Positions 3,238-26,582 of a DNA stretch of 28,120 nucleotides are shown piece by piece. Location: IMG/VR virus record IMGVR_UViG_2690316278_000016. One strand, written 5' to 3'. The notes beneath the pieces are model-generated. The model saw nothing but the letters and a program-made list of their open reading frames with translations. It was not told where the DNA came from and made no database searches. Origin of the DNA: a virus. Lineage: Duplodnaviria; Heunggongvirae; Uroviricota; Caudoviricetes. The number at the start of each line of letters is the position of its first letter. The stretch's first letter is position 1. The translations under genes were made by a program, and so were the position numbers.

Positions 3238-3509
3238 GTATTCGTATTGAAATTGGCGAACGTTATGTCGTTACCAGTGACAGCTTCCAGTTTATTCTCC
3301 ACGAGAAAAAGAGAGCGGAAAGCGGTAAAAACGCCGGTCAGGAATGGCTGGCGGTGGTTGGTTATTACCCGAAATTAAGCCAGCTCGTTTCCGGCCTGAT
3401 GCATCACGATATTCTGACCGGAAGCGCAAAGTCTTTTGCTGATTTAAACGCGCAGGTTGAGCAACTCAGCAAGCGTTGTTCAGAGGCTTTTGGCTCATAT
3501 GGCCGTTAA
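3234..3509 (+). CDS. Hypothetical early protein (P2 orf83 position)
   Basis: 91-aa ORF, start overlaps previous stop, 3' end overlaps the A start. Confidence 0.45.
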   Translation: MSIRIEIGERYVVTSDSFQFILHEKKRAESGKNAGQEWLAVVGYYPKLSQLVSGLMHHDILTGSAKSFADLNAQVEQLSKRCSEAFGSYGR

Positions 3510-5796
3510 AGCCTCCGGGCGTTTTGTCCCTCCGTCAGCATTTGCTGCAGGCACCGGTAAGGCGTTTACCGGTGCTTATGCATGGAACGCGCCACGCGAG
3601 GCTGTCGGGCGCGAAAGACCCCTTACACGTGACGAGATGCGTCAGGTGCAAGGTGTTTTATCCACGATTAACCGCCTGCCTTACTTTTTGCGCTCGCTGT
3701 TTACGTCACGCTATGACTACATCCGGCGCAATAAAAGCCCGGTGCACGGGTTTTATTTCCTCACATCCACTTTTCAGCGTCGTTTATGGCCGCGCATTGA
3801 GCGTGTGAATCAGCGCCATGAAATGAACACCGACGCGTCGATGCTGTTTCTGGCTGAGCGTGACCACTATGCGCGCCTGCCGGGAATGAATGACAAGGAG
3901 CTGAAAAAGTTTGCCGCCCGTATCTCATCGCAGCTTTTCATGATGTATGAGGAACTCAGCGATGCCTGGGTGGATGCGCATGGCGAAAAAGAATCGCTGT
4001 TTACGGATGAGGCGCAGGCTCACCTCTATGGTCATGTTGCTGGCGCTGCACGTGCTTTCAATATTTCCCCTCTCTACTGGAAAAAATACCGTAAAGGACA
4101 GATGACCACGAGGCAGGCATATTCTGCCATTGCCCGTCTGTTTAACGATGAGTGGTGGATTAGTCAGCTTAAAGGCCAGCGTATGCGCTGGCATGAGGCG
4201 TTACTGATTGCTGTCGGGGAGGTCAATAAAGACCGTTCTCCTTATGCCAGTAAACATGCCATTCGTGATGTGCGTGCACGCCGCCAGGCAAATCTGGAAT
4301 TTCTTAAATCGTGTGATCTCGAAAACAGGGAAACAGGCGAGCGCATCGACCTTATCAGTAAGGTGATGGGCAGTATTTCTAATCCTGAAATTCGCCGGAT
4401 GGAGCTGATGAACACCATTGCCGGTATTGAGCGTTACGCCGCCGCAGAAGGTGATGTGGGGATGTTTATCACGCTGACCGCGCCGTCAAAGTATCACCCG
4501 ACACGTCAGGTTGGAAAAGGCGAAAGTAAAACCGTCCAGCTAAATCACGGCTGGAACGATGAGGCATTTAATCCAAAGGATGCGCAGCGTTATCTCTGCC
4601 GTATCTGGAGCCTGATGCGCACGGCATTCAAGGATAATGATTTACAGGTCTACGGTTTGCGAGTCGTCGAGCCACACCACGACGGAACGCCGCACTGGCA
4701 TATGATGCTTTTTTGTAATCCACGCCAGCGTAACCAGATTATCGAAATCATGCGTCGCTACGCGCTCAAAGAGGATGGCGACGAAAGAGGAGCTGCGCGA
4801 AACCGTTTTCAGGCAAAACATCTTAATCGGGGCGGTGCTGCGGGGTATATCGCGAAATACATCTCAAAAAATATCGACGGCTATGCACTGGATGGGCAGC
4901 TCGATAACGATAGCGGCAGACCGCTGAAAGATACTGCCGCGGCTGTTACCGCATGGGCGTCAACGTGGCGCATTCCGCAATTTAAAACGGTTGGCCTGCC
5001 GACAATGGGGGCTTACCGTGAACTACGCAAATTGCCTCGCGGCGTCAGCATTGCTGATGAGTTTGACGAGCGCGTCGAGGCTGCACGCGCCGCCGCAGAC
5101 AGTGGTGATTTTGCGCTGTATATCAGCGCGCAGGGTGGGGCAAATGTCCCGCGCGATTGTCAGACTGTCAGGGTCGCCCGTAGTCCGTCGGATGAAGTTA
5201 ACGAGTACGAGGAAGAAGTCGAGAGAGTGGTCGGCATTTACGCGCCGCATCTCGGCGCGCGTCATATTCATATCACCAGAACGACGGACTGGCGCATTGT
5301 TCCGAAAGTGCCGGTCGTTGAGCCTTTGACTTTAAAAAGCGGCATCGCCGCGCCTCGGAGTCCTGTCAATAACTGTGGAAAGCTCACTGGTGGTGATACT
5401 TCGTTACCGGCTCCCACACCTTCTGAGCACGCCGCAGCAGTGCTTAATCTGGTAGATGACGGTGTTATCGAATGGAATGACCCGGAGGTTGTGAGGGCGC
5501 TCAGAGGTGCATTAAAACACGGACTGAGAAGACCAAACCGTCAGCAAAGAAACGGAAGCCCGTTAAAACCGCATGAAATAGCGCCATCGGCCAGACTGAC
5601 CCGGTCGGAACGAATGCAAATTACCCGTATCCGCGTTGACCTTGCTCAGAACGGTATCAGGCCGCAGCGATGGGAGCTTGAGGTGCTGGCGCGTGGGGCA
5701 ACCGTAAATTATGACGGGAAAAAATTCACTTACCCGCTCGCTGATGAGTGGTCGGGATTCTCAACAGTATTAGAGTCAAACTCAGTGAAGCGTTAA
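3499..5796 (+). CDS. A: Rolling-circle replication initiation endonuclease (P2 gpA-like, HUH superfamily)
   Basis: About 765 aa from ATG 3499 (MAVKASGRF...); HUH motif PHWHMMLF and tyrosine motif GYIAKYISK visible in the translation. Confidence 0.88.
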   Translation: MAVKASGRFVPPSAFAAGTGKAFTGAYAWNAPREAVGRERPLTRDEMRQVQGVLSTINRLPYFLRSLFTSRYDYIRRNKSPVHGFYFLTSTFQRRLWPRIERVNQRHEMNTDASMLFLAERDHYARLPGMNDKELKKFAARISSQLFMMYEELSDAWVDAHGEKESLFTDEAQAHLYGHVAGAARAFNISPLYWKKYRKGQMTTRQAYSAIARLFNDEWWISQLKGQRMRWHEALLIAVGEVNKDRSPYASKHAIRDVRARRQANLEFLKSCDLENRETGERIDLISKVMGSISNPEIRRMELMNTIAGIERYAAAEGDVGMFITLTAPSKYHPTRQVGKGESKTVQLNHGWNDEAFNPKDAQRYLCRIWSLMRTAFKDNDLQVYGLRVVEPHHDGTPHWHMMLFCNPRQRNQIIEIMRRYALKEDGDERGAARNRFQAKHLNRGGAAGYIAKYISKNIDGYALDGQLDNDSGRPLKDTAAAVTAWASTWRIPQFKTVGLPTMGAYRELRKLPRGVSIADEFDERVEAARAAADSGDFALYISAQGGANVPRDCQTVRVARSPSDEVNEYEEEVERVVGIYAPHLGARHIHITRTTDWRIVPKVPVVEPLTLKSGIAAPRSPVNNCGKLTGGDTSLPAPTPSEHAAAVLNLVDDGVIEWNDPEVVRALRGALKHGLRRPNRQQRNGSPLKPHEIAPSARLTRSERMQITRIRVDLAQNGIRPQRWELEVLARGATVNYDGKKFTYPLADEWSGFSTVLESNSVKR

Positions 5797-5882
5797 CTCA
5801 ATAAATATGAGTTTATAAGTTAGGCCTCGAGATTTTGTAGAAAGGGATGTATACTGAGTATCGTATAGATTTGGAGTGAGTG

Positions 5883-6905
5883 ATGACTGTAAAGGTGATA
5901 GACCTTTTTTGTGGTGCTGGCGGATTAACTCATGGTTTGCAGCTTGCGGGGCTTGATGTCGTTGCAGGCATTGACCTTGAGGGGGAATGTAGGTTTCCCT
6001 ATGAAAGAAACAATAAATCTAAGTTTATTGAGCAAGATATCGCTAAAGTAACAAAAGAGGAACTGCTGAGGCTTTATGGTGATGCGTCTGTAAAAGTATT
6101 GGCAGGATGCGCACCTTGCCAACCTTTTTCAAAATATACTCAAGGAAAAGATAAGGCTGATGATAAAAAATGGCCTCTTCTTTATGAGTTCGAACGTTTA
6201 ATTCGCGAAGTATCTCCAGAAATCGTAACAATGGAGAACGTTCCTGATGTAACTAAACATAAAGTTTATAATGATTTTTATAATTCATTGTTAAAGTTGG
6301 GCTATTATGTTTGGGCGTCTAAGATTGATTGTGTCGAATATGGAATCCCACAAAACCGTTCCCGTCATGTATTGTTGGCCTCAAAATTGGGGGCGATTGA
6401 GTTAGTAAAACGTGACGATGTTATTTTGAAAACAGTTAGAGATGCAATAGGAAATCTTCCTCCATTAGAAGATGGCCAAACAGATCCAAATGATATATTA
6501 CATAGAGCCAGTAAATTAAATCCGATTAATAAAAAAAGAATTATACACTCTGTTCCTGGTGGTACATGGAAGGACTGGCCGAAAGAGTTGGTTGCCGCTT
6601 GTCATATGAAATCCAGCGGTAAAGGGTATGCTAGTGTATATGGGCGCATGTCTTGGGATAAGCCAAGTCCAACAATTACAACTCTTTGTTATGGTTTCGG
6701 GAATGGGCGTTTTGGACATCCAGAACAGCATAGAGCGATTTCTCTTAGAGAGGCTGCTTTATTGCAAACTTTCCCGATGGATTATATTTTTGTAGAAGAC
6801 AAAAACAAGTTTGTTATAAGAAGTATTGGGAAAATGATAGGTAATGCTGTTCCTGTGGAACTAGGAAAAGCAATTGGGCAATCAATCAAGAACCATTTAG
6901 AATGA
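5883..6905 (+). CDS. DNA (cytosine-5)-methyltransferase, complete
   Basis: Motif I FCGAGG, catalytic motif IV GCAPCQPFS, motif VI ENV, motif VIII QNRSR, C-terminal GNAVPVELG; GGAG RBS 6 nt upstream of ATG 5883; AT-rich codon usage unlike flanking phage genes. Confidence 0.88.
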   Translation: MTVKVIDLFCGAGGLTHGLQLAGLDVVAGIDLEGECRFPYERNNKSKFIEQDIAKVTKEELLRLYGDASVKVLAGCAPCQPFSKYTQGKDKADDKKWPLLYEFERLIREVSPEIVTMENVPDVTKHKVYNDFYNSLLKLGYYVWASKIDCVEYGIPQNRSRHVLLASKLGAIELVKRDDVILKTVRDAIGNLPPLEDGQTDPNDILHRASKLNPINKKRIIHSVPGGTWKDWPKELVAACHMKSSGKGYASVYGRMSWDKPSPTITTLCYGFGNGRFGHPEQHRAISLREAALLQTFPMDYIFVEDKNKFVIRSIGKMIGNAVPVELGKAIGQSIKNHLE

Positions 6906-6911
6906 TAAAAT

Positions 6912-6928
6912 GGCCTGCTTTACAGGCC
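6912..6928. terminator. Short hairpin between the convergent methyltransferase and HEPN genes (possible bidirectional terminator)
   Basis: GGCCTG-CTTTA-CAGGCC inverted repeat in the 29-bp gap between the two stop codons; stem is short and T-tracts are weak. Confidence 0.35.
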
Positions 6929-6934
6929 TTATAA

Positions 6935-7615
6935 CTATTGTTCTAAATATTCATTATTATTTATATAGTGCTCTATATTATTCACGATAGCATCAAGATA
7001 GGCGATTACTTCTAATGAAATATTCTCTAAGTCCTGATATGAAACATTTTTTCCAATCTCAGCAAATGATACATTGCCATGAGATAAATCATTACGATGT
7101 TGTTTAACAGTGGCTAATTTTTCACCATGTTTAGTGTGAGTGTAATCGGAATGTGTAGAAAAACCATATATTTTCGATTTTTCTTTGATTTCCTCTCTAT
7201 CAATATTTCCTGAGAATATTTTCTTTTTGTTGAACGTGCCATAAGATATACCGCAAGATATACCTTTGGTAAGGTGATTAACTAAACTTTCAACATTTAC
7301 AGATTCATTTTTTAATCTTTTTAATATTTCTGACCTGAGATTTTTCCTGAGTTTGTCAAATTCTACGTTTCTATCATAAATAGTCTCATGAATAAGGCAG
7401 ATAGCTTCTCTCATTGTTGATTCAATGAGGTTATATAACAGTATATATACTGCTCCCTTTAGAGTTTTTCGTGATTGAGCAGTAATGGAGAACTTATGTT
7501 CTTTATCATCAGCTGATATCAGTTCTGCACCGGCATACTCAATAAATTTCAAAAGATCCAAATAGGCCAAGATCTCTCCTGACCTTTCGTCAAAATCCTC
7601 ACGAAAACGATCCAT
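6935..7615 (-). CDS. HEPN-like domain protein (MAE_28990/MAE_18760-type), putative RNase effector
   Basis: 226 aa; C-terminal RNDLSHG fits the HEPN Rx4HG motif; start codon sits 1 nt after the upstream DUF262 gene stop (TAA-C-ATG). Confidence 0.6.
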   Translation of the reverse strand: MDRFREDFDERSGEILAYLDLLKFIEYAGAELISADDKEHKFSITAQSRKTLKGAVYILLYNLIESTMREAICLIHETIYDRNVEFDKLRKNLRSEILKRLKNESVNVESLVNHLTKGISCGISYGTFNKKKIFSGNIDREEIKEKSKIYGFSTHSDYTHTKHGEKLATVKQHRNDLSHGNVSFAEIGKNVSYQDLENISLEVIAYLDAIVNNIEHYINNNEYLEQ

Positions 7616-7616
7616 G

Positions 7617-8759
7617 TTAATCCTCTAATAATTTATCCCGAACATATTCAATTCGTTCAATTACCTTCACGCGACTATTAGCTCCGTCGGAAGTGGTCAA
7701 TCGTTTGAATTCTTCTGAGCTTAGCCAATCTAAGTTCTTGGGAACAAGGTCAGGGACTTCACGTAATGCAAGTGCTGCGCCAACAGCGAGAGATTCGAAT
7801 CTAACTCGAGGTGTAGATTTTGCAGTAATAGTTTTCTTGAATCCTGCTGGGAAATAGTTTTCAACAAAAGATAGAACATTAGCAAACTCTTGTTTCATTG
7901 AGTTTTGTTTAGTTTCGTCTATATCTCGATTTTCTGACATATAGTCATTTAGAAAATCCCGTACGGAATGATCAAAGTTCTTGTACTTATCTACGTAGGC
8001 AAAGAATCTTAATGTAAATTCTAACCGTTCATCTCGTTTTTCTTTAGTCTGAGATAAAGGTGCTAATTCTTTAAATTTAGGTATTGTTGAGCATGGCTTA
8101 ATAACCTGTGTATATAAATTTGTTGAACCAAGTTCTGATCCTTTACGGACTTCCATATCTTTCAATATATCGCTGCCAGAGTTAATACGCTCAAAAAGAT
8201 CTCTACGGGTTTCTTCATTGCATTTAGAACTCAATTCTATAACGCGGACAGGAATTCTCATGAAACGACGTTGACGTGATAATGGTAAATCTTGGAATTT
8301 GAAACCATTAAGGACGTCTAAAGATTTCAGGTCTTGTAAAACTAATTCATTTTGGATAAAAGCGTGTATAGTCCTAACTCGTTGTGAGCCATCAACAATC
8401 TCAATTCGCCCATCTAAATCGGGATCTTCGGAGAGAACATCTGCTATAAATATATATGGTATAGGAAAACCCAAAATCAAAGACTCTATCAATTTTGATT
8501 GTCTTTTTTCACTCCAAACAAAATCCCTTTGATAATCAGGAACAAAGAGTTCGTTAGTATCATCCTCTAATCCGTTATGATACTTATTAACTAATAACTC
8601 AACGGTAAATTCTTTGGTCTCAAAATCCACATCCTTTTGCTCAGCACGAATTTGCTCTTCAGCGTTTTGCTTTATCACCTCTAGCTGAGCAAGCAACTCT
8701 GCTCTTTTCTTGGCATTATCTTCATTTTCTAGTTGAGATTTTAAATCAATAATGTCCAT
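7617..8759 (-). CDS. DUF262 (ParB/Srx-like, GmrSD N-terminal-type) domain protein
   Basis: N-terminal DYQRDFVWS and IVDGSQRVRTI (DGQQR-type motif); ATG at 8759 with AAGGGAA RBS upstream, ORF track extends to a TTG at 8777; no obvious HNH/DUF1524 C-terminal motif. Confidence 0.7.
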   Translation of the reverse strand: MDIIDLKSQLENEDNAKKRAELLAQLEVIKQNAEEQIRAEQKDVDFETKEFTVELLVNKYHNGLEDDTNELFVPDYQRDFVWSEKRQSKLIESLILGFPIPYIFIADVLSEDPDLDGRIEIVDGSQRVRTIHAFIQNELVLQDLKSLDVLNGFKFQDLPLSRQRRFMRIPVRVIELSSKCNEETRRDLFERINSGSDILKDMEVRKGSELGSTNLYTQVIKPCSTIPKFKELAPLSQTKEKRDERLEFTLRFFAYVDKYKNFDHSVRDFLNDYMSENRDIDETKQNSMKQEFANVLSFVENYFPAGFKKTITAKSTPRVRFESLAVGAALALREVPDLVPKNLDWLSSEEFKRLTTSDGANSRVKVIERIEYVRDKLLED

Positions 8760-9103
8760 GTCTAGTTCCCTTAACAAGTGTTAAAAATTGAAGCGGATAG
8801 CATACCGCATAGATCATGAAAAATGCCATCATGTGCATGGATTTGCATGCGTCAGAAGTCGCTTTTATTGTTAGTTATCACTAGCGCTGGCGTGCTCTTG
8901 GAGTGTTCATGCAACTGCATTAAAACCGCCCCATGAAGCGGGCGGGCGAGGCGGGGAAAGCACTGCGCGCTGGCGGTGGTGCTGATTTTATTTTCCAGCG
9001 TCTCAGCGCGTCGTGACGGCGCTTAGTCTGCCCGTTGGGCGTTGGTGTGTCTGCGGGATTTTTTGTGCGGTGATGAGCGTGTGAGGGCGTGATGGCGGGG
9101 TGT

Positions 9104-9125
9104 AAAAAAGCCGCCCGCAGGCGGC
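9104..9125 (-). terminator. Rho-independent terminator downstream of portal gene Q
   Basis: GCCGCC-CGCA-GGCGGC hairpin at 9110-9125 followed on the minus strand by a 6-nt U-run (plus-strand AAAAAA at 9104-9109), 5 nt after the Q stop. Confidence 0.55.
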
Positions 9126-9130
9126 GATGT

Positions 9131-10165
9131 TCAGCCGTTGTCAGTGTCCAGTGAGTAGTTTTTAAAGCGGATGACCTCCTGACCGAGCCAGCCGTTTATC
9201 TCGCGGATCCTGTCCTGTAACGGGATAAGCTCATTGCGGACAAAGACCTTTGCCACTTTCTCAATATCACCCAGCGACCCGACGTTCTCCGGCTTGCCCC
9301 CCATCAACTGAAAGGGGATGCGGTGCGCGTCCAGCAGGTCAGCGGCGCTGGCTTTTTTGATATTAAAAAAATCGTCCTTCGTTGCCACTTCACTGAGCGG
9401 GATAATTTTAATGCCGTCGGCTTTCCCCTGTGGGGCATAGAGAAACAGATTTTTAAAGTTATTGCGGCCTTTCGACTTAACCATGTTTTCGCGAAGCATT
9501 TCGATATCGTTGCGATCCTGCACGGCATCGGTGACGTACATGATGTATCCGGCATGTGCGCCGTTTTCGTAATACTTGCGGCGGAACAGCGTGGCCGACT
9601 CATTCAGCCATGCAGAGTTAAGGGCGCTGAGATATTCCGGCAGGCCGTACAGCTCCTGATTAATATCAGGCTCCAGCAGGTGAAACACGGAGCCGGGCGC
9701 GAAGGCTGTCGGCTCGTTGAAGGACGGCACCCACCAGTAAACATCCTCCTCCACGCCACGACGGGTATATTTGGCCGGTGAGGTTTCCAGTCTGATGACC
9801 TTACCGGTGGTGCTGTAACGCTTTTCCAGAAACGCATTACCGAACACCAGAAAATCCAGCACAAAACGGCTGAAATCCTGCTGGGAAAGCCACGGGTGCG
9901 GGATAAACGTTGAAGCCAGAATATTACGTTTGACGTAAATCGGTGAGCTGTGATGCACGGCAGCACGCAGGCTTTTTGCCAGACCGGTAAAGCTGACCGG
10001 CGGCTCATACCATCTGCCGTTACTGATGCACTCGACGTAATCCAGAATGTCACGGCGGTCGAGTACCGGCACCGGCTCACCAAAGGTGAATGCTTCCATT
10101 TTCGGGGCGCTGGCGGTGATTGTTTTTGCCGCAGGTCGCGGTGTTTTCCCTTTTTTCTTGCTCAT
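9131..10165 (-). CDS. Q: Portal protein (P2 gpQ-like)
   Basis: 344-aa ORF, same length as P2 Q, immediately downstream of the terminase with a TGATG stop/start overlap. Confidence 0.88.
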   Translation of the reverse strand: MSKKKGKTPRPAAKTITASAPKMEAFTFGEPVPVLDRRDILDYVECISNGRWYEPPVSFTGLAKSLRAAVHHSSPIYVKRNILASTFIPHPWLSQQDFSRFVLDFLVFGNAFLEKRYSTTGKVIRLETSPAKYTRRGVEEDVYWWVPSFNEPTAFAPGSVFHLLEPDINQELYGLPEYLSALNSAWLNESATLFRRKYYENGAHAGYIMYVTDAVQDRNDIEMLRENMVKSKGRNNFKNLFLYAPQGKADGIKIIPLSEVATKDDFFNIKKASAADLLDAHRIPFQLMGGKPENVGSLGDIEKVAKVFVRNELIPLQDRIREINGWLGQEVIRFKNYSLDTDNG

Positions 10166-11937
10166 CAGTAAAACTCCAGAATGGTGGATGTCAGCGGAGT
10201 GCTGATACCGGCGGTGAGTGGCTCATTTAACAGGGCGTGCATGGTTGCCCAGGCGAGGTCGGCGTGGCTGGCTTCCTCGCTGCGGCTGGCCTCATAGGTG
10301 GCACTGCGTCCGCTGCTGGTCATGGTCTTGCGGATAGCCATGAACGAGCTGGTGATGTCGGTGGCGCTGACGTCATATTCCAGACAGCCACGGCGGATGA
10401 CGTCTTTGGCCTTGAGCACCATTGCGGTTTTCATTTCCGGCGTGTAGCGGATATCGCGCGCGGCGGGATAGAACGAGCGCACGAGCTGGAACACGCCGAC
10501 ACCGAGGCCGGTGGCATCAATACCGATGTATTCGACGTTGTATTTTTCGGTGAGTTTGCGGATGGACTCCGCCTGGGTGGCAAAGTCCATGCCTTTCCAC
10601 TGGTGACGCTCAAGTATTCTGAATTTGCCACCGGCCACCACCGGCGGTGCCAGCACCACGCATCCGGCGCTGTCGCCACGGTGTGACGGGTCGTAACCAA
10701 TCCATACCGGGCGGGAGCCGAACGGATTTGCGGCAAACGGCGCGTAGTCTTCCCATTCTTCCAGCGTGTCGACCATGCAGCGTTGCAGCTCCTCGAACGG
10801 GAACACCGATACCTTGTCGTCAACAAATTCACACATGAACAGGTTTTTAAAATCGTCGGCGCTGTTTTCGCGTTTGAGCTGCTCAATGTCGAACAATGTG
10901 CAGCCGCCTTTCAGGGCGTCCTCAATGGTGACAATCTGCCGCCACTGGCCGTCCGCACAGAGAAGACCACCGGCAAGGGCGTTATGACTGACGTCGATTT
11001 CCACACGTTCGGCGGCGCTGGCGCGTCCCCGGTTGAACAGTTCACCCGACCAGAACGGGTAGGCGTCGTGCGCCAGCGTGGACGGGGTGGAGAAATAGGT
11101 CGAGCGCAGGTGACTCTGTGAGGCCATACCTGATGCCACCTTACGCAGTACCTGAAAATTCGGGATCCAGAAAATCTCGTCGACGTACAGGTCGCCGTTA
11201 TGGCTCTGTGCGGTGTTGGAGTTGGTGCCGAGAAAAATCAGTTTTGCGCCGTTATTGCCCAGGACAATCGGGTCACCGGTCAGGTCAACGTCAACCAGAC
11301 GAGCAAAGGCGATGATGTATTCACGGAACACATACGCCTGCGTTTTACTGGCCGACAGAAAAATCTGGTTATGGCCGGTTTTCAGGGCGCGCAGCAGCGC
11401 CTCGCGGGAAAAATAAAACGTCGCGCCAATCTGGCGGGATTTCAGGATATCGCGGATGCGGTGCTCAAGCCCGGCACGATACCAGTGCAACTGATAGTCG
11501 AAAGACTGCTCAAAGAAAATCTGCTCCAGCTTTTCGATGGCCTCGTCACTGAAAAAATTCTTTTTCGGTTTGCGACGCCCGCCTTTGTTGCGGTTAGCGA
11601 TGTTCGGATTAAGGTCTGCCTCGTTGCCGGTCTGGCTGTAGCGGTTTACCCGTGCCAGTCGTTCAATCTGGCGTCCGAGCAGGTCAATTTCCTTGAAGTC
11701 ACCGCCGGTTTTCTGCGGTTTGATGATGAGCTGGGTCAGCCGCGCTTCCAGACTCATTTCGACACGGCTGATGGGGGCAACACTGTCCCAGCCGTCGCGC
11801 TGTTTCCAGCTCTGCACCGTCGGGCGTTTCATCTGCAACATGGCGGCAATCTGCGGCACGGAAAACCCCTGCCAGTACAGCAGCGCCGCCTGACGACGCG
11901 GGTCGTGTAAAAGAGTGGTGTCTGTGGTGATGGTCAT
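10165..11937 (-). CDS. P: Terminase large (ATPase) subunit (P2 gpP-like)
   Basis: About 590 aa from ATG at 11937 (MTITTDTTLL...); ORF track's 600-aa version begins at an upstream non-ATG start. Confidence 0.88.
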   Translation of the reverse strand: MTITTDTTLLHDPRRQAALLYWQGFSVPQIAAMLQMKRPTVQSWKQRDGWDSVAPISRVEMSLEARLTQLIIKPQKTGGDFKEIDLLGRQIERLARVNRYSQTGNEADLNPNIANRNKGGRRKPKKNFFSDEAIEKLEQIFFEQSFDYQLHWYRAGLEHRIRDILKSRQIGATFYFSREALLRALKTGHNQIFLSASKTQAYVFREYIIAFARLVDVDLTGDPIVLGNNGAKLIFLGTNSNTAQSHNGDLYVDEIFWIPNFQVLRKVASGMASQSHLRSTYFSTPSTLAHDAYPFWSGELFNRGRASAAERVEIDVSHNALAGGLLCADGQWRQIVTIEDALKGGCTLFDIEQLKRENSADDFKNLFMCEFVDDKVSVFPFEELQRCMVDTLEEWEDYAPFAANPFGSRPVWIGYDPSHRGDSAGCVVLAPPVVAGGKFRILERHQWKGMDFATQAESIRKLTEKYNVEYIGIDATGLGVGVFQLVRSFYPAARDIRYTPEMKTAMVLKAKDVIRRGCLEYDVSATDITSSFMAIRKTMTSSGRSATYEASRSEEASHADLAWATMHALLNEPLTAGISTPLTSTILEFY

Positions 11938-12110
11938 GAATACCTCGCCGTGATGAATACACGGCAAGGCTACTGAGTCGCGCCCCGCGATTCGCTAATG
12001 TGCTGTTGTGTCAGTGATAAACCATCCGGGACTGATGGCGGAGGATGCGCATCGTCGGGAAACTGATGCCGACATGTGACTCCTCTAATCACTATTCAGG
12101 ACTCCTGACA
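11938..12110. promoter_or_regulatory. Divergent late-promoter region between the P-Q and O-N-M-L operons
   Basis: Intergenic region between divergently oriented terminase and scaffold genes; no confident Ogr-type TGT-N12-ACA dyad found by eye. Confidence 0.35.
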
Positions 12111-22775: not shown

Positions 22776-25161
22776 TTCGCAGACCTGTCGCATGGTCATC
22801 ATCGTCAGCAGTGTGGCCTCGGTGGAGCTGACCATTGACACCACAACGGTGATGGCGACACAGGATTACGTTGATGACAAAATTGCAGAGCACGAACAGT
22901 CACGACGTCACCCGGACGCCTCGCTGACCGCAAAAGGCCTTGTCCAGCTCAGTAGTGCCACCAACAGCACGTCTGAAACGCTTGCGGCAACGCNNNNNNN
23001 NNNNNNNNNNNNNNNNNNNNNNNNNNNNNNNNNNNNNNNNNNNNNNNNNNNNNNNNNNNNNNNNNNNNNNNNNNNNNNNNNNNNNNNNNNNACCAACAGC
23101 ACGTCTGAAACACTGGCCGCAACGCCGAAAGCGGTAAAGGCCGCCTATGACCTTGCTAACGGGAAATACACTGCACAGGACGCCACTACAGCGCGAAAAG
23201 GTCTTGTCCAGCTCAGTANNNNNNNNNNNNNNNNNNNNNNNNNNNNNNNNNNNNNNNNNNNNNNNNNNNNNNNNNNNNNNNNNNNNNNNNNNNNNNNNNN
23301 NNNNNNNNNNNNNNNNNNNNNNNNNNNNNNNNNNNNNNNNNNNNNNNNNNNNNNNNNNNNNNNNNNNNNNNNNNNNNNNNNNNNNNNNNNNNNNNNNNNN
23401 NNNNNNNNNNNNNNNNNNNNNNNNNNNNNNNNNNNNNNNNNNNNNNNNNNNNNNNNNNNNNNNNNNNNNNNNNNNNNNNNNNNNNNNNNNNNNNNNNNNN
23501 NNNNNNNTGCCACTCTGACGGCGCTGGCGGGGCTTGCTACTGCGGCAGACAGGTTTCCGTATTTTACGGGGAATGATGTCGCCAGCCTGGCAACCCTGAC
23601 AAAAGTCGGGCGGGATATTCTTGCGAAATCGACCGTTGCCGCCGTTATCGAATACCTCGGTTTACAGGAAACGGTAAATCAGGCTTCTGGCGCATTACAG
23701 AAAAACCAGAACGGCGCAGATATTCCGGGGAAAGATACCTTCACCAAAAATATTGGTGCCTGCCGCGCATATAGCTCATGGCTGAATATTGGTGGCGATA
23801 GTCAGGTCTGGACAACCGCGCAATTTATTTCGTGGCTGGAGAGTCAGGGAGCATTTAACCATCCTTACTGGATGTGCAAAGGCTCATGGGCTTATGCAAA
23901 TAATAAGGTCATTACAGATACAGGTTGCGGAAATATTTGTCTTGCAGGTGCTGTGGTGGAAGTTATTGGCACTCGCGGCGCAATGACCATACGCGTTACC
24001 ACGCCGAGCACGTCCAGCGNNNNNNNNNNNAACGACCCGAATTTTGCGACCACCATGACTAACGCGCTTGCGGGTAAGCAACCGAAAGATGCCACCCTGA
24101 CGGCGCTGGCCGGACTTACTACTGCGGCAGGCAAGTTTCCGTATTTTACGGGGAATGATGTCGCCAGCCTGGCAACCCTGACAAAAGTCGGGCGGGATAT
24201 TCTTGCGAAATCGACCGTTGCTGCCGTTATCGAATACCTCGGTTTACGAGAACTCGGCACAAGCGGGGAGAAAATACCGTTACTCAGTACAGCGAATACC
24301 TGGACTAATCGACAAACATTCAGCGGTGGCCTTTCTGGTGAACTATCCGGCAATGCTTCTACAGCTGCAAAATTAAAAACTGCCAGGAAAATAAGCAATG
24401 TGGCTTTTGATGGTTCCTCCGATATCACATTAAAAGCAAGTCATGTTGGTGCGTTTGCCTTAGGGAAAACAGGAAGCACCGTTGCGAATGATAAAGCAGT
24501 TGGATGGAACTGGAGTAGCGGAGCCTATAACGCAACTATTAGTGGTGCATCAACGTTAATTATTCATTTTTATATGGGAGAAGGAAGTTGTCCTGCAGCT
24601 CAGTTTCGGATTAATTATAAAAATGGCGGTATTTTTTATCGTTCAGCCCGTGATGGTTATGGTTTTGAAGCCGACTGGTCCGAATTTTACACCACCAGAA
24701 AACCTTCAGCAGGAGATGTTGGTGCACTGCCGTTATCTGGTGGTCAACTGAATGGTGCACTGGGTATCGGAACATCCAGTGCTCTTGGCGGTAATTCGAT
24801 TGTATTGGGTGATAATGACACGGGCTTTAAACAAAAAGGCGATGGTAATCTGGATGTTTATGCTAATAACGTCCATGTTATGCGCTTTGTCTCCGGAAGC
24901 ATTCAAAGTAATAAAACCATAAATATTACGGGACGTGTTAATCCCTCGGATTACGGTAACTTTGATTCCCGCTATGTGAGAGATGTCAGACTTGGCACAC
25001 GAGTTGTTTAGACCATGAAGAAAGGCGTGATGTATGAAAAATCAGGCCATGTAATCACGGGGCTTGGTATTATCGGTGAAGTCGATGGTGATGATCCGGC
25101 AGTATTCAGACCAATACAAAAGTTAATTAACGGAACATGGTATAACGTATCGCAGGTATAA
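22776..25161 (+). pseudogene. H: Tail fibre mosaic: repeated blocks and two alternative C-terminal regions joined through four N-gaps; in-frame TAG at 25009-25011
   Basis: 22776-22940 duplicates 21393-21557; 23508-23660 and 24110-24250 are near-duplicates; C-terminal region ends ...RLGTRVV-TAG-TMKKGVMYEK...[17 protein letters not shown]-stop, same frame either side of the TAG. Confidence 0.55.
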
Positions 25162-25163
25162 TC

Positions 25164-25442
25164 ATGCAGCATTTAAAAAACATTGTCGCAGGTAATCCAA
25201 AAACCGTTGAACAATACCAGCTAACAAAGAATTTTGATGTTATCTGGTTATGGTCCGAAGATGGAAAAAATTGGCATGAGGAATTAAAAAACTTTCAGGA
25301 GGATACAATAAAACTGGCTTACACAGTTGAGGGAATAATTATTGCTATAGACAAGGATGTATCAGCAATTAATCCAGAAGGTTTAAGTGTCGTTGAGTTG
25401 CCTGATATTACAGCAAATCGCCGGGCTGATATTTCGGGCAAC
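25164..25442 (+). pseudogene. G: Tail fibre assembly protein (tfa, P2 gpG-like), 5' half only, truncated by IS3-family element
   Basis: N-terminus [22 protein letters not shown]...[13 protein letters not shown] is colinear with the two intact tfa paralogues downstream, then switches to transposase sequence after the n at 25444. Confidence 0.7.
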
Positions 25443-26582
25443 TNTGAAAATCAACTTTCGATCAGTGAAGGCGCTTCCCGATTATCTCTTCCTGAAGGCA
25501 CTTTAGGACAATGGGTTACCGCCGCCAGAAAAGGGCTCGGTACTCCTGGTTCCCGCACGGTGGCTGAACTGGAATCTGAAATTCTGCAACTGCGTAAGGC
25601 GTTAAATGAAGCTCGCCTTGAGCGAGATATATTAAAAAAAGCAACAGCGTATTTTGCACAGGAGTCGCTGAAAAATACGCGTTAATCGAACAATGGCGAC
25701 AACAATTTCCCATTGAAGCGATGTGTCAGGTATTTGGTGTATCCAGGAGCGGTTATTACAACTGGGTACAGCATGAACCCTCAGACAGAAAACAAAGTGA
25801 TGAGCGGCTAAAACTGGAGATTAAGGTGGCACATATCCGCACTCGCGAAACATATGGAACCCGGCGGCTCCAGACGGAGCTGGCAGAGAATGGCATCATC
25901 GTTGGTCGTGACCGACTGGCACGTCTTCGTAAGGAGCTAAGGCTACGCTGTAAGCAGAAACGCAAGTTCAGAGCGACTACGAACTCGAACCACAATCTGC
26001 CAGTTGCGCCAAATCTGCTGAACCAGACGTTCGCTCCTACAGCACCAAATCAGGTCTGGGTGGCGGACCTGACGTATGTTGCCACACAGGAGGGATGGTT
26101 GTACCTCGCTGGCATCAAAGATGTTTATACGTGCGAAATTGTCGGCTACGCCATGGGAGAGCGCATGACAAAAGAGCTGACAGGTAAAGCCCTGTTTATG
26201 GCGCTCAGGAGCCAGCGCCCACCTGCCGGGCTAATCCACCACTCTGATCGAGGTTCACAGTACTGCGCATACGATTACCGGGTCATACAGGAGCAGTCTG
26301 GTCTGAAAACATCAATGTCGCGTAAAGGTAACTGTTACGACAACGCTCCGATGGAAAGCTTCTGGGGAACGCTGAAAAATGAGAGCCTGAGCCACTATCG
26401 TTTTAATAACCGGGATGAAGCCATCTCAGTAATACGGGAATACATTGAGATTTTCTACAATCGTCAGCGTCGTCACTCTCGTCTGGGGAATATCTCCCCG
26501 GCAGCCTTCAGGGAAAAATATCATCAGATGGCTGCTTAAAAAAAGAACAAATGGTAGTGTCCGCTATTGCCAGTACACCTCA
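25443..26582 (+). mobile_element. IS3-family insertion sequence, apparently 5'-truncated (orfA lacks its first ~20-25 codons and no left inverted repeat or UTR is present)
   Basis: orfA-like frame to stop at 25683-25685 (…WVTAARKG…ILKKATAYFAQESL), A7 slippery run at 25634-25640, orfB in the -1 frame to 26539 with DDE/rve-like residues (WVADLTYV, HSDRGSQY, YDNAPMESFW); boundaries approximate. Confidence 0.75.
25634..25640 (+). promoter_or_regulatory. Programmed -1 ribosomal frameshift site (A AAA AAA) for the OrfAB transposase fusion
   Basis: Heptamer lies in the orfA frame just before the orfA stop; the -1 frame is open from here into orfB. Confidence 0.55.

Follow-up and report, generated by a model that had tools for sequence, protein, structure and literature searches.

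The question raised by this locus is why a virus should carry a complete C5-cytosine DNA methyltransferase (MTase) gene tail to tail with a pair of genes encoding a DUF262 protein and a HEPN protein. The DNA analysed (the window) is the 28,120-nucleotide stretch of the IMG/VR virus record IMGVR_UViG_2690316278_000016, the whole of which is a P2-like (Peduovirus) prophage with an integrase at its left end, and the three genes lie side by side in one of its variable regions. An initial annotation, made from the sequence alone, had left two possibilities, that the MTase is independent anti-restriction cargo or that it is a third component whose modification has a functional link to the adjacent genes. 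Our analysis suggests, with a probability of roughly 0.6, that the MTase provides the modification arm of a mobile defence cassette of three genes, which the prophage carries as cargo, and we are less confident that this cassette has the polarity of a restriction-modification (R-M) system than that the three genes form a functional unit.

Close relatives keep the three genes together. Nine complete E. coli genomes matched the cassette (eight at about 97.5% and one at 89%) and all nine have all three genes; no partial cassette, with the MTase only or the pair only, was found among 5,426 complete E. coli genomes, and the DUF262/HEPN pair flanks every sampled viral or metagenomic MTase that is at least 62% identical to that of the window. 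In K. pneumoniae a trio with about 85% protein identity (loci L266-L270) lies inside lambdoid prophages, in a cargo site between the replication genes (O/P, DnaC-like) and the nin/RusA/antiterminator genes which is unrelated to the slot in P2. The trio is thus found in both P2-like and lambdoid phages, from which it follows that the genes are transferred as a unit from one kind of phage to another, unrelated kind. A Providencia trio adjoins a phage portal fragment, the index of assemblies has a close variant of the DUF262 protein in 487 blocks, mostly of K. pneumoniae, and the identical MTase sequence occurs on 754 contigs of the protein collection.

More distant relatives were sampled from both sides of the locus. 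A HEPN-anchored search, with one genome per species, provided the best 80 of 409 relatives, and MTase-anchored searches provided the best 80 viral and the best 80 metagenomic loci, all three samples being top tblastn hits; these were scored using hidden Markov models built from few sequences of these proteins, with mechanical calling of open reading frames (ORFs), and the samples are taxonomically uneven, cyanobacteria dominating one set and enterobacterial phages another. DUF262 precedes HEPN in all 80 HEPN-anchored loci and a cognate MTase is adjacent in 38 of them (from Gammaproteobacteria, Cyanobacteria and Acidobacteria). In Vibrio, cyanobacteria and acidobacteria the trio lies on the chromosome. 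Starting from the MTase, the pair was present on 55 of the 80 viral contigs and on 25 of the 80 metagenomic contigs, with 27 more of the latter too short to judge. The DUF262>HEPN<MTase arrangement of the window is common to Moraxella phage Mcat24, Vibrio jasicida and the cyanobacterium Brasilonema, and the trio of Peduovirus P2_4B2 occupies the same hotspot as that of the window; two intact loci close to P2_4B2 (L204 and L205) have an MTase 73% identical to the window's, with 45% identity for DUF262 and 30% for HEPN. Four gene orders were seen (convergent, MTase>DUF262>HEPN, DUF262>HEPN>MTase and divergent). The median distance between 3' ends in convergent loci is -4 nt, with 60 of 87 overlapping, and the median distance from MTase to DUF262 in the MTase>DUF262>HEPN operons is also -4 nt. 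Linkage that persists across phyla and gene orders and with overlapping ends is therefore unlike that of two independent cargo genes. Of the two possibilities left by the initial annotation, this supports a functional tie, the linkage extending across phyla, phage types and gene orders, and it argues against independent anti-restriction cargo. Co-occurrence across genomes, which had been put forward as a check, held at close range, where no separate MTase or pair was found, and held in part at long range, where about half of the distant MTases have other effectors and about half of the distant pairs have no MTase.

The MTase ORF begins at either GTG 5880 or ATG 5883 and ends with the TGA at 6903-6905, and ATG 5883 is likely to be the start because GGAG lies 8-11 nt upstream and the RefSeq homologues are 340 amino acids (aa) long. 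The gene had earlier been described as complete at 5883-6928; complete it is, but it stops at 6905 and position 6928 is the end of a hairpin. The protein matches PF00145 over residues 5-337 (Pfam, E=3.4e-58), scores above the cut-off of TIGR00675 and is matched in PADLOC best by DrmMII (1.2e-90) and then by MTase_II (6.7e-89); its matches to DNMT2/tRNA enzymes are far weaker than those to M.HaeIII. Motifs I, IV, VI, VIII, IX and X of the C5-MTases are found in canonical order, with a target recognition domain (TRD) between VIII and IX. The motifs DLFCGAGG (F9-G14), PCQ (P78-Q80), ENV (E118-V120), QNRSR (Q157-R161), RAISLREAA (motif IX) and GNAV (G320-V323) are all invariant in the family alignment, in agreement with the earlier observation that every canonical motif is present, and since catalytic motifs and TRD are conserved it was reasonable to consider the enzyme probably active. 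Its specificity was not assignable from sequence matches in the PDB (M.HaeIII, DNMT1, M.HhaI).

The HEPN protein belongs to the HEPN/MAE_28990 family, having a match to PF18737, a four-helix HEPN fold and an Rx4-6H motif (R174-N-D-L-x-H179, Rx4H) which is invariant, and it is predicted to be a ribonuclease (RNase) effector. The DUF262 protein, which is predicted to be a sensor or regulator, was taken from ATG 8759 as in the RefSeq annotation, although its ORF reaches TTG 8777, and 1 nt separates its stop from the HEPN start. The NTPase motifs QR and DGSQR, known from the GmrS/ParB fold, are present, and its structure model (pLDDT 83.5) is closest in fold to the N-domains of BrxU, ParB, Noc and SspE, followed by a C-terminal half that is all helical. 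No DUF1524/HNH nuclease was found in this protein by Pfam scan or by fold comparison of the model, and no PD-(D/E)xK, HNH, GIY-YIG or phospholipase D (PLD) fold was found in either the DUF262 or the HEPN protein. In PADLOC the DUF262 protein matches NsnA (1.7e-54) and PD-T4-2_A (2.5e-35), with a weak match to REase_II through its DUF262 domain (9.4e-6); no NCBIfam model matches either partner. Across 137 dereplicated pairs, with or without an MTase, DGxQR and the R...H of HEPN are kept in all and QR in all but one.

We propose that the MTase would place a sequence-specific 5-methylcytosine (m5C) mark on lysogen DNA and on the phage's own DNA, and that the DUF262/ParB-like NTPase would act as a DNA-bound, nucleotide-driven sensor of this mark, controlling the co-translated HEPN protein as an RNase-type effector. 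Unmarked incoming DNA would be read as foreign, upon which HEPN would be released and cut RNA and the infection would stop, so that R-M logic would be given an abortive or translation-arresting output instead of classical DNA cleavage. The domain identities, the intact catalytic motifs, the linkage of the genes and the sharing of the MTase family among effector sets were all observed, whereas a protective instead of an activating role for methylation, a reading of the mark by DUF262 and a cutting of RNA by HEPN are the steps that we infer. In a more specific and more tentative form, which we consider possible rather than probable, this may be an R-M system without a DNA endonuclease in which the ParB/DUF262 NTPase slides or loads on DNA, reads m5C and licenses HEPN on unmarked DNA, while the MTase is a plug-in whose target may contain CTCGAG and which is interchangeable among DUF262/HEPN, GHKL-nuclease and DISARM partners.

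The wider MTase family bears on this last idea. A set of 47 MTase-anchored loci without the pair, each with at least 2 kb of flank on either side, includes 24 in which the MTase stands beside a GHKL ATPase of about 660 aa (HATPase_c_3) with a Shedu SduA_C-like nuclease end, a partner that matches PDLC03419, the PADLOC REase_II model for a "Type II restriction enzyme", at 1.9e-94. Vsr, a mismatch endonuclease, occurs in 20 loci, overlapping the GHKL set, and in 12 loci the MTase is beside the DISARM SNF2 helicase DrmD. In a tree of the MTases the three partner types lie mixed among one another, and across them the TRD is the most conserved region of the MTase, with a mean identity of 62-65% compared to 51-55% for the N-terminal catalytic core and with 34 columns at least 95% identical across 174 sequences. 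Because the TRD is best conserved and the partner types are interleaved, the family probably has one specificity and may serve as a portable modification module for three effector sets. The GHKL/SduA_C-like partner (24 loci within L110-L250, for example L226 5042-7027) is worth noting in its own right, since its mechanism appears little studied. Within 104 trios, the Spearman correlation of pairwise identity was 0.72 between DUF262 and HEPN, compared to 0.16 between MTase and DUF262 and 0.12 between MTase and HEPN; DUF262 and HEPN thus co-evolve tightly with each other and weakly with the MTase.

A possible target of the MTase is suggested by the DNA upstream of its gene, where a CTCGAG box (window 5826-5831) overlaps the -35 hexamer of a promoter-like site. 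The position of a CTCGAG or CTCGA[GT] box relative to the MTase is kept in diverged cassettes, where the codon for the motif-I Asp is 57-86 nt downstream of it (68-86 in nearly every case), and the box is found at the same relative position in L003, L012, L017, L170, L203-L216, L240 and others. CTCGAG was present in 23 of 148 dereplicated MTase upstream regions compared to 2.6 expected, and the box was seen with both DUF262/HEPN and GHKL partners and in none of 11 DISARM loci. The box may be an autoregulatory site and possibly the MTase's own target, though this is speculative. Locus L204 reads CTCAAG at the box position, which is the product expected from CpG deamination. In the window CTCGAG occurs at 5826 and 7805 only, both within the cassette, and is absent from the roughly 25 kb of backbone. 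Over the window as a whole its depletion was not significant (2 observed, 5.0±2.5 expected), and a comparison of palindrome avoidance in the flanks of MTase-positive and MTase-negative loci brought out no target motif, the cyanobacterial DNA being depleted in most 6-bp palindromes in both sets (observed/expected ratio for CTCGAG of 0.17 in MTase-positive and 0.09 in MTase-negative loci).

At the other end of the gene, the MTase and HEPN stops are 29 bp apart (6906-6934; the HEPN stop codon is at 6935-6937 on the minus strand) with a small GC-rich hairpin between, just as had been described. This hairpin scores terminator-like on the minus strand, and the 50-nt intergenic region folds much better than shuffled sequence (for the plus strand -16.3 kcal/mol with z=-5.0, for the minus strand -14.4 kcal/mol with z=-4.1), so that it looks like a bidirectional terminator. 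It is not a family-wide feature, most convergent relatives overlapping at their 3' ends instead.

Several observations weigh against an obligate modification arm. About 42 of the 80 HEPN-anchored loci have no MTase, most of them belonging to one cyanobacterial clade which sits stably beside housekeeping genes with all catalytic motifs kept. Remnants of an MTase lie convergent to intact pairs in a Dolichospermum metagenome-assembled genome (MAG) (L022 6716-6964, the last 83 aa) and in a Trichodesmium MAG (L049 6676-6809, about 19 aa); the MTase was therefore lost there while the pair survived, and such loss is survivable unless an unlinked MTase covers the motif. The MTase of P2_4B2 (L004, around 4680-4690) is frameshifted in a run of eight G beside an intact pair, where the intact homologue P0142 implies seven G, and this may reflect either an error in sequencing the homopolymer or phase variation of the MTase by strand slippage. 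The weak co-divergence of MTase and pair shows looser coupling than in classical R-M pairs, no PADLOC model matches the window HEPN, and PD-T4-2, a related system of DUF262 and HEPN genes, protects K-12 against T4 as two genes with no MTase cloned. The MTase-less cyanobacterial pairs (L028-L088) have an aconitase-like gene upstream in 16 loci and a ClpB-like gene in 7, and their conserved positions suggest long vertical inheritance rather than mobile cargo.

The main alternative, which we regard as unlikely but which accounts for many of these points, is that the pair is self-sufficient and uses the MTase facultatively, much as SspE uses its modification, so that the mark would be a cofactor or tuning signal instead of a shield against self-killing, and its loss would weaken or change defence without being lethal. 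The intact motifs of the MTase-less clade, the MTase remnants beside intact pairs, the cloning of PD-T4-2 without an MTase and the weak co-divergence would all follow from this, and SspE, itself a DUF262 protein, is stimulated by the host's own phosphorothioate modification (PMC10952713). It is opposed by the service of the same MTase family to restriction-type effectors elsewhere (the GHKL restriction enzyme with Vsr, and DISARM), and by two loci in which genes of the restriction arm were lost and the MTase kept: in Hormoscilla (L089 4013-7710) DUF262 is fragmented and HEPN truncated beside an intact MTase, and in a K. pneumoniae lambdoid prophage (L268 6346-6828) HEPN is truncated to 160 aa with DUF262 and MTase intact, which is the order of decay expected for R-M systems. 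Unlinked MTases of the same specificity could also explain the tolerated losses.

Two further explanations receive little credence. One is that the cassette is an addiction module, in which loss of the genes would dilute methylation and free the HEPN toxin, thus stabilising the prophage or island, with defence being secondary. Type II R-M systems are known to act as addiction modules and the cassette is always on mobile or variable DNA in Enterobacterales; HEPN proteins are, moreover, common toxins of toxin-antitoxin systems (PMC3710099). We consider this very unlikely, however, as the MTase decays beside intact pairs, the cyanobacterial pair is stably chromosomal, and both the defence-hotspot position and the anti-phage activity of the two-gene relative favour defence. 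The other, and the least probable of those weighed here, is that the MTase is an orphan, an anti-restriction or epigenetic phage gene that merely shares a hotspot with an unrelated pair. Orphan MTases are often carried by phages, P2 hotspots stack unrelated cargo (as in E. coli GN04592) and this MTase is oriented opposite to the pair, with a promoter-like site of its own. Against this, the genes stay linked beyond P2 and beyond phages, with four gene orders and overlapping ends, the 5,426 E. coli genomes hold no version with the MTase or the pair alone, and the relatives of the MTase that lack the pair are attached to other restriction modules and are not solitary. A defence cassette in which the MTase is the modification arm remains our preferred interpretation.

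The cassette fills a slot of variable genes between gene A and portal gene Q of the P2-like prophage, which is defence hotspot 1 (Table 1). This hotspot holds tin/old in P2 itself (PMC9519451, PMC9122126), and the main text of Rousset et al. (PMC9122126) mentions neither DUF262 nor a methyltransferase. The GC profile shows an island of about 3 kb with 31-39% GC compared to 53-58% in its flanks, and the flanks alone match in 2,177 of the 5,426 complete E. coli genomes, where other genes fill their slot. In E. coli GN04592 (L001 3084-3748) a DUF3850 (ASCH-like) gene and a small hypothetical gene precede the trio in the hotspot; other strains have these two in the slot more often than any other genes, and cargo sets can therefore stack. 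Elsewhere in the window, an IS3-family element (25164-26539; an HTH_Tnp_1 ORF and an rve integrase-core ORF) lies directly 3' of the tail-fibre gene (22792-25011) and ahead of the tail-fibre assembly genes, and given this insertion the tail-fibre assembly of the prophage may be defective. Richness in IS elements, together with the source name of the identical MTase cluster, suggests Shigella or E. coli as the host.

Table 1. Positions of the cassette genes, associated sites and neighbouring phage genes in the window
Feature	Position	Strand	Basis or detail
Replication endonuclease gpA (gene A)	3457-5796	+	PF05840, E=2e-123
Variable cargo slot, P2 defence hotspot 1	5797-9130		Between gene A and portal Q
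Promoter-like site of the MTase	5826-5855	+	Consensus scan; TCGAGA-17 nt-TATACT
C5-cytosine DNA methyltransferase (MTase), 340 aa	5883-6905	+	PF00145, TIGR00675, PADLOC
GC-rich hairpin between convergent stops	6912-6928	.	GGCCTGC-TTTA-CAGGCC
HEPN protein, MAE_28990 family, 226 aa	6935-7615	-	PF18737 (HEPN_MAE_28990), E=5.8e-29
DUF262/ParB-like NTPase, 380 aa	7617-8759	-	PF03235 (GmrSD_N/DUF262), E=8.2e-26
Portal gene Q	9131-10165	-	PF04860
Terminase	10165-11967		

If our interpretation is right, the cassette would represent a class of mechanism intermediate between classical R-M, in which DNA is both marked and cut, and abortive infection by RNases that are triggered by phage cues, with a DNA methylation mark gating an RNase by way of a ParB-like NTPase. 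PD-T4-2-like DUF262/HEPN systems would gain a testable hypothesis for sensing, and one MTase family with one specificity would be a portable self-marker for three effectors, a point that touches on the way in which defence modules are put together and swapped. As the cassette is common, its m5C mark and defence range may affect phage therapy and the transformation of clinical Enterobacterales. Should the MTase be irrelevant to the pair, the locus would be an ordinary case of two stacked cargo items.

Among described systems, the closest is an operon listed by Anantharaman et al. 2013 (Biol Direct 8:15, Table 1; PMC3710099) coding for HEPN MAE_28990, a ParB nuclease and a DNA methylase. The HEPN of the window matches PF18737, which was built from that family, its DUF262 protein and m5C MTase are, respectively, the "ParB" partner and the "DNA methylase", and the adjacency of the HEPN gene to both is conserved in relatives. 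The association of the three is thus not new, having been tabulated in 2013, and the system is non-canonical. The published entry differs in being one computational line, without a name, target motif, experiment, gene orders, module swapping or MTase-less clades, and it is accompanied by a generic model in which an R-M-linked HEPN RNase is a second line of defence; our literature searches found no experimental study of an MTase/DUF262/HEPN trio. The initial annotation had called an MTase beside a DUF262 gene unexpected, on the grounds that DUF262 proteins of the GmrSD type usually attack modified DNA, and this premise is weak because there is no DUF1524/HNH here, because DUF262 is found in other systems (PMC10952713) and because the operon had been tabulated (PMC3710099).

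Those other DUF262-containing systems are SspE, Menshen, Dazbog and PD-T4-2 (PMC10952713). PD-T4-2, a validated anti-T4 system from E. coli ECOR65 (Vassallo et al. 2022), is likewise a DUF262 and HEPN (RiboL-PSP/MAE clan) pair, and its PD-T4-2_A model matches the DUF262 protein of the window; the window HEPN, however, misses PD-T4-2_B, the DUF262 protein scores higher against NsnA, and the pair is 1.84 kb long and MTase-linked compared to 1.54 kb for PD-T4-2. The window pair is therefore related to PD-T4-2 and not clearly a member. Menshen (NsnABC) shares a ParB-DUF262 domain and a helical C-terminal half with the window protein, NsnA being its best PADLOC match, but membership was rejected as the NsnB ATPase and the NsnC effector are both absent, a HEPN protein takes the place of the partner and an MTase is present. 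GmrSD and BrxU have in common with it the N-terminal DUF262 ParB/Srx-fold NTPase with QR and DGxQR, BrxU being the best fold match. Membership of this type IV group was also rejected, since the window protein matches PF03235 only and has a helical C-terminal half without DUF1524; it is, moreover, MTase-linked, and modification-dependent attack on m5C would be self-destructive here. SspABCD-SspE and Dnd resemble the cassette in joining a DNA-modification module to a DUF262-containing sensor, with modules that are exchangeable (PMC12707154), but their modification is phosphorothioate instead of m5C, SspE has a DUF1524 nickase domain that the window DUF262 protein is without, and the effector of the cassette is a separate HEPN protein.

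From the side of the MTase, DISARM class 2 is suggested by the best PADLOC match, DrmMII, and by the twelve family members beside DrmD, but it was rejected because the window has no DrmA, B, C, D or E and the cassette is bounded by gpA and Q. The cassette resembles type II R-M systems whose M and R genes converge, in that its m5C MTase, the TRD of which is conserved, is adjacent to one or more putative restriction genes, which are convergent and often overlapping, in a mobile unit, and the same MTase family serves the PADLOC/REBASE-type "Type II REase" (GHKL and nuclease) with Vsr. The cassette differs in that the partners have no recognisable DNA endonuclease fold, the likely effector being a HEPN RNase, and in that the window-type pair persists without an MTase in some lineages. 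EcoprrI-PrrC differs in that PrrC is an ABC-ATPase/HEPN fusion held latent by a complete type I enzyme, whereas the cassette has no separate DNA-cleaving restriction enzyme, but it shares with the cassette the coupling of an R-M module to a HEPN RNase. It is also the conceptual model of Anantharaman et al., and the mechanism proposed here is essentially the one which they sketched for R-M-linked HEPN proteins.

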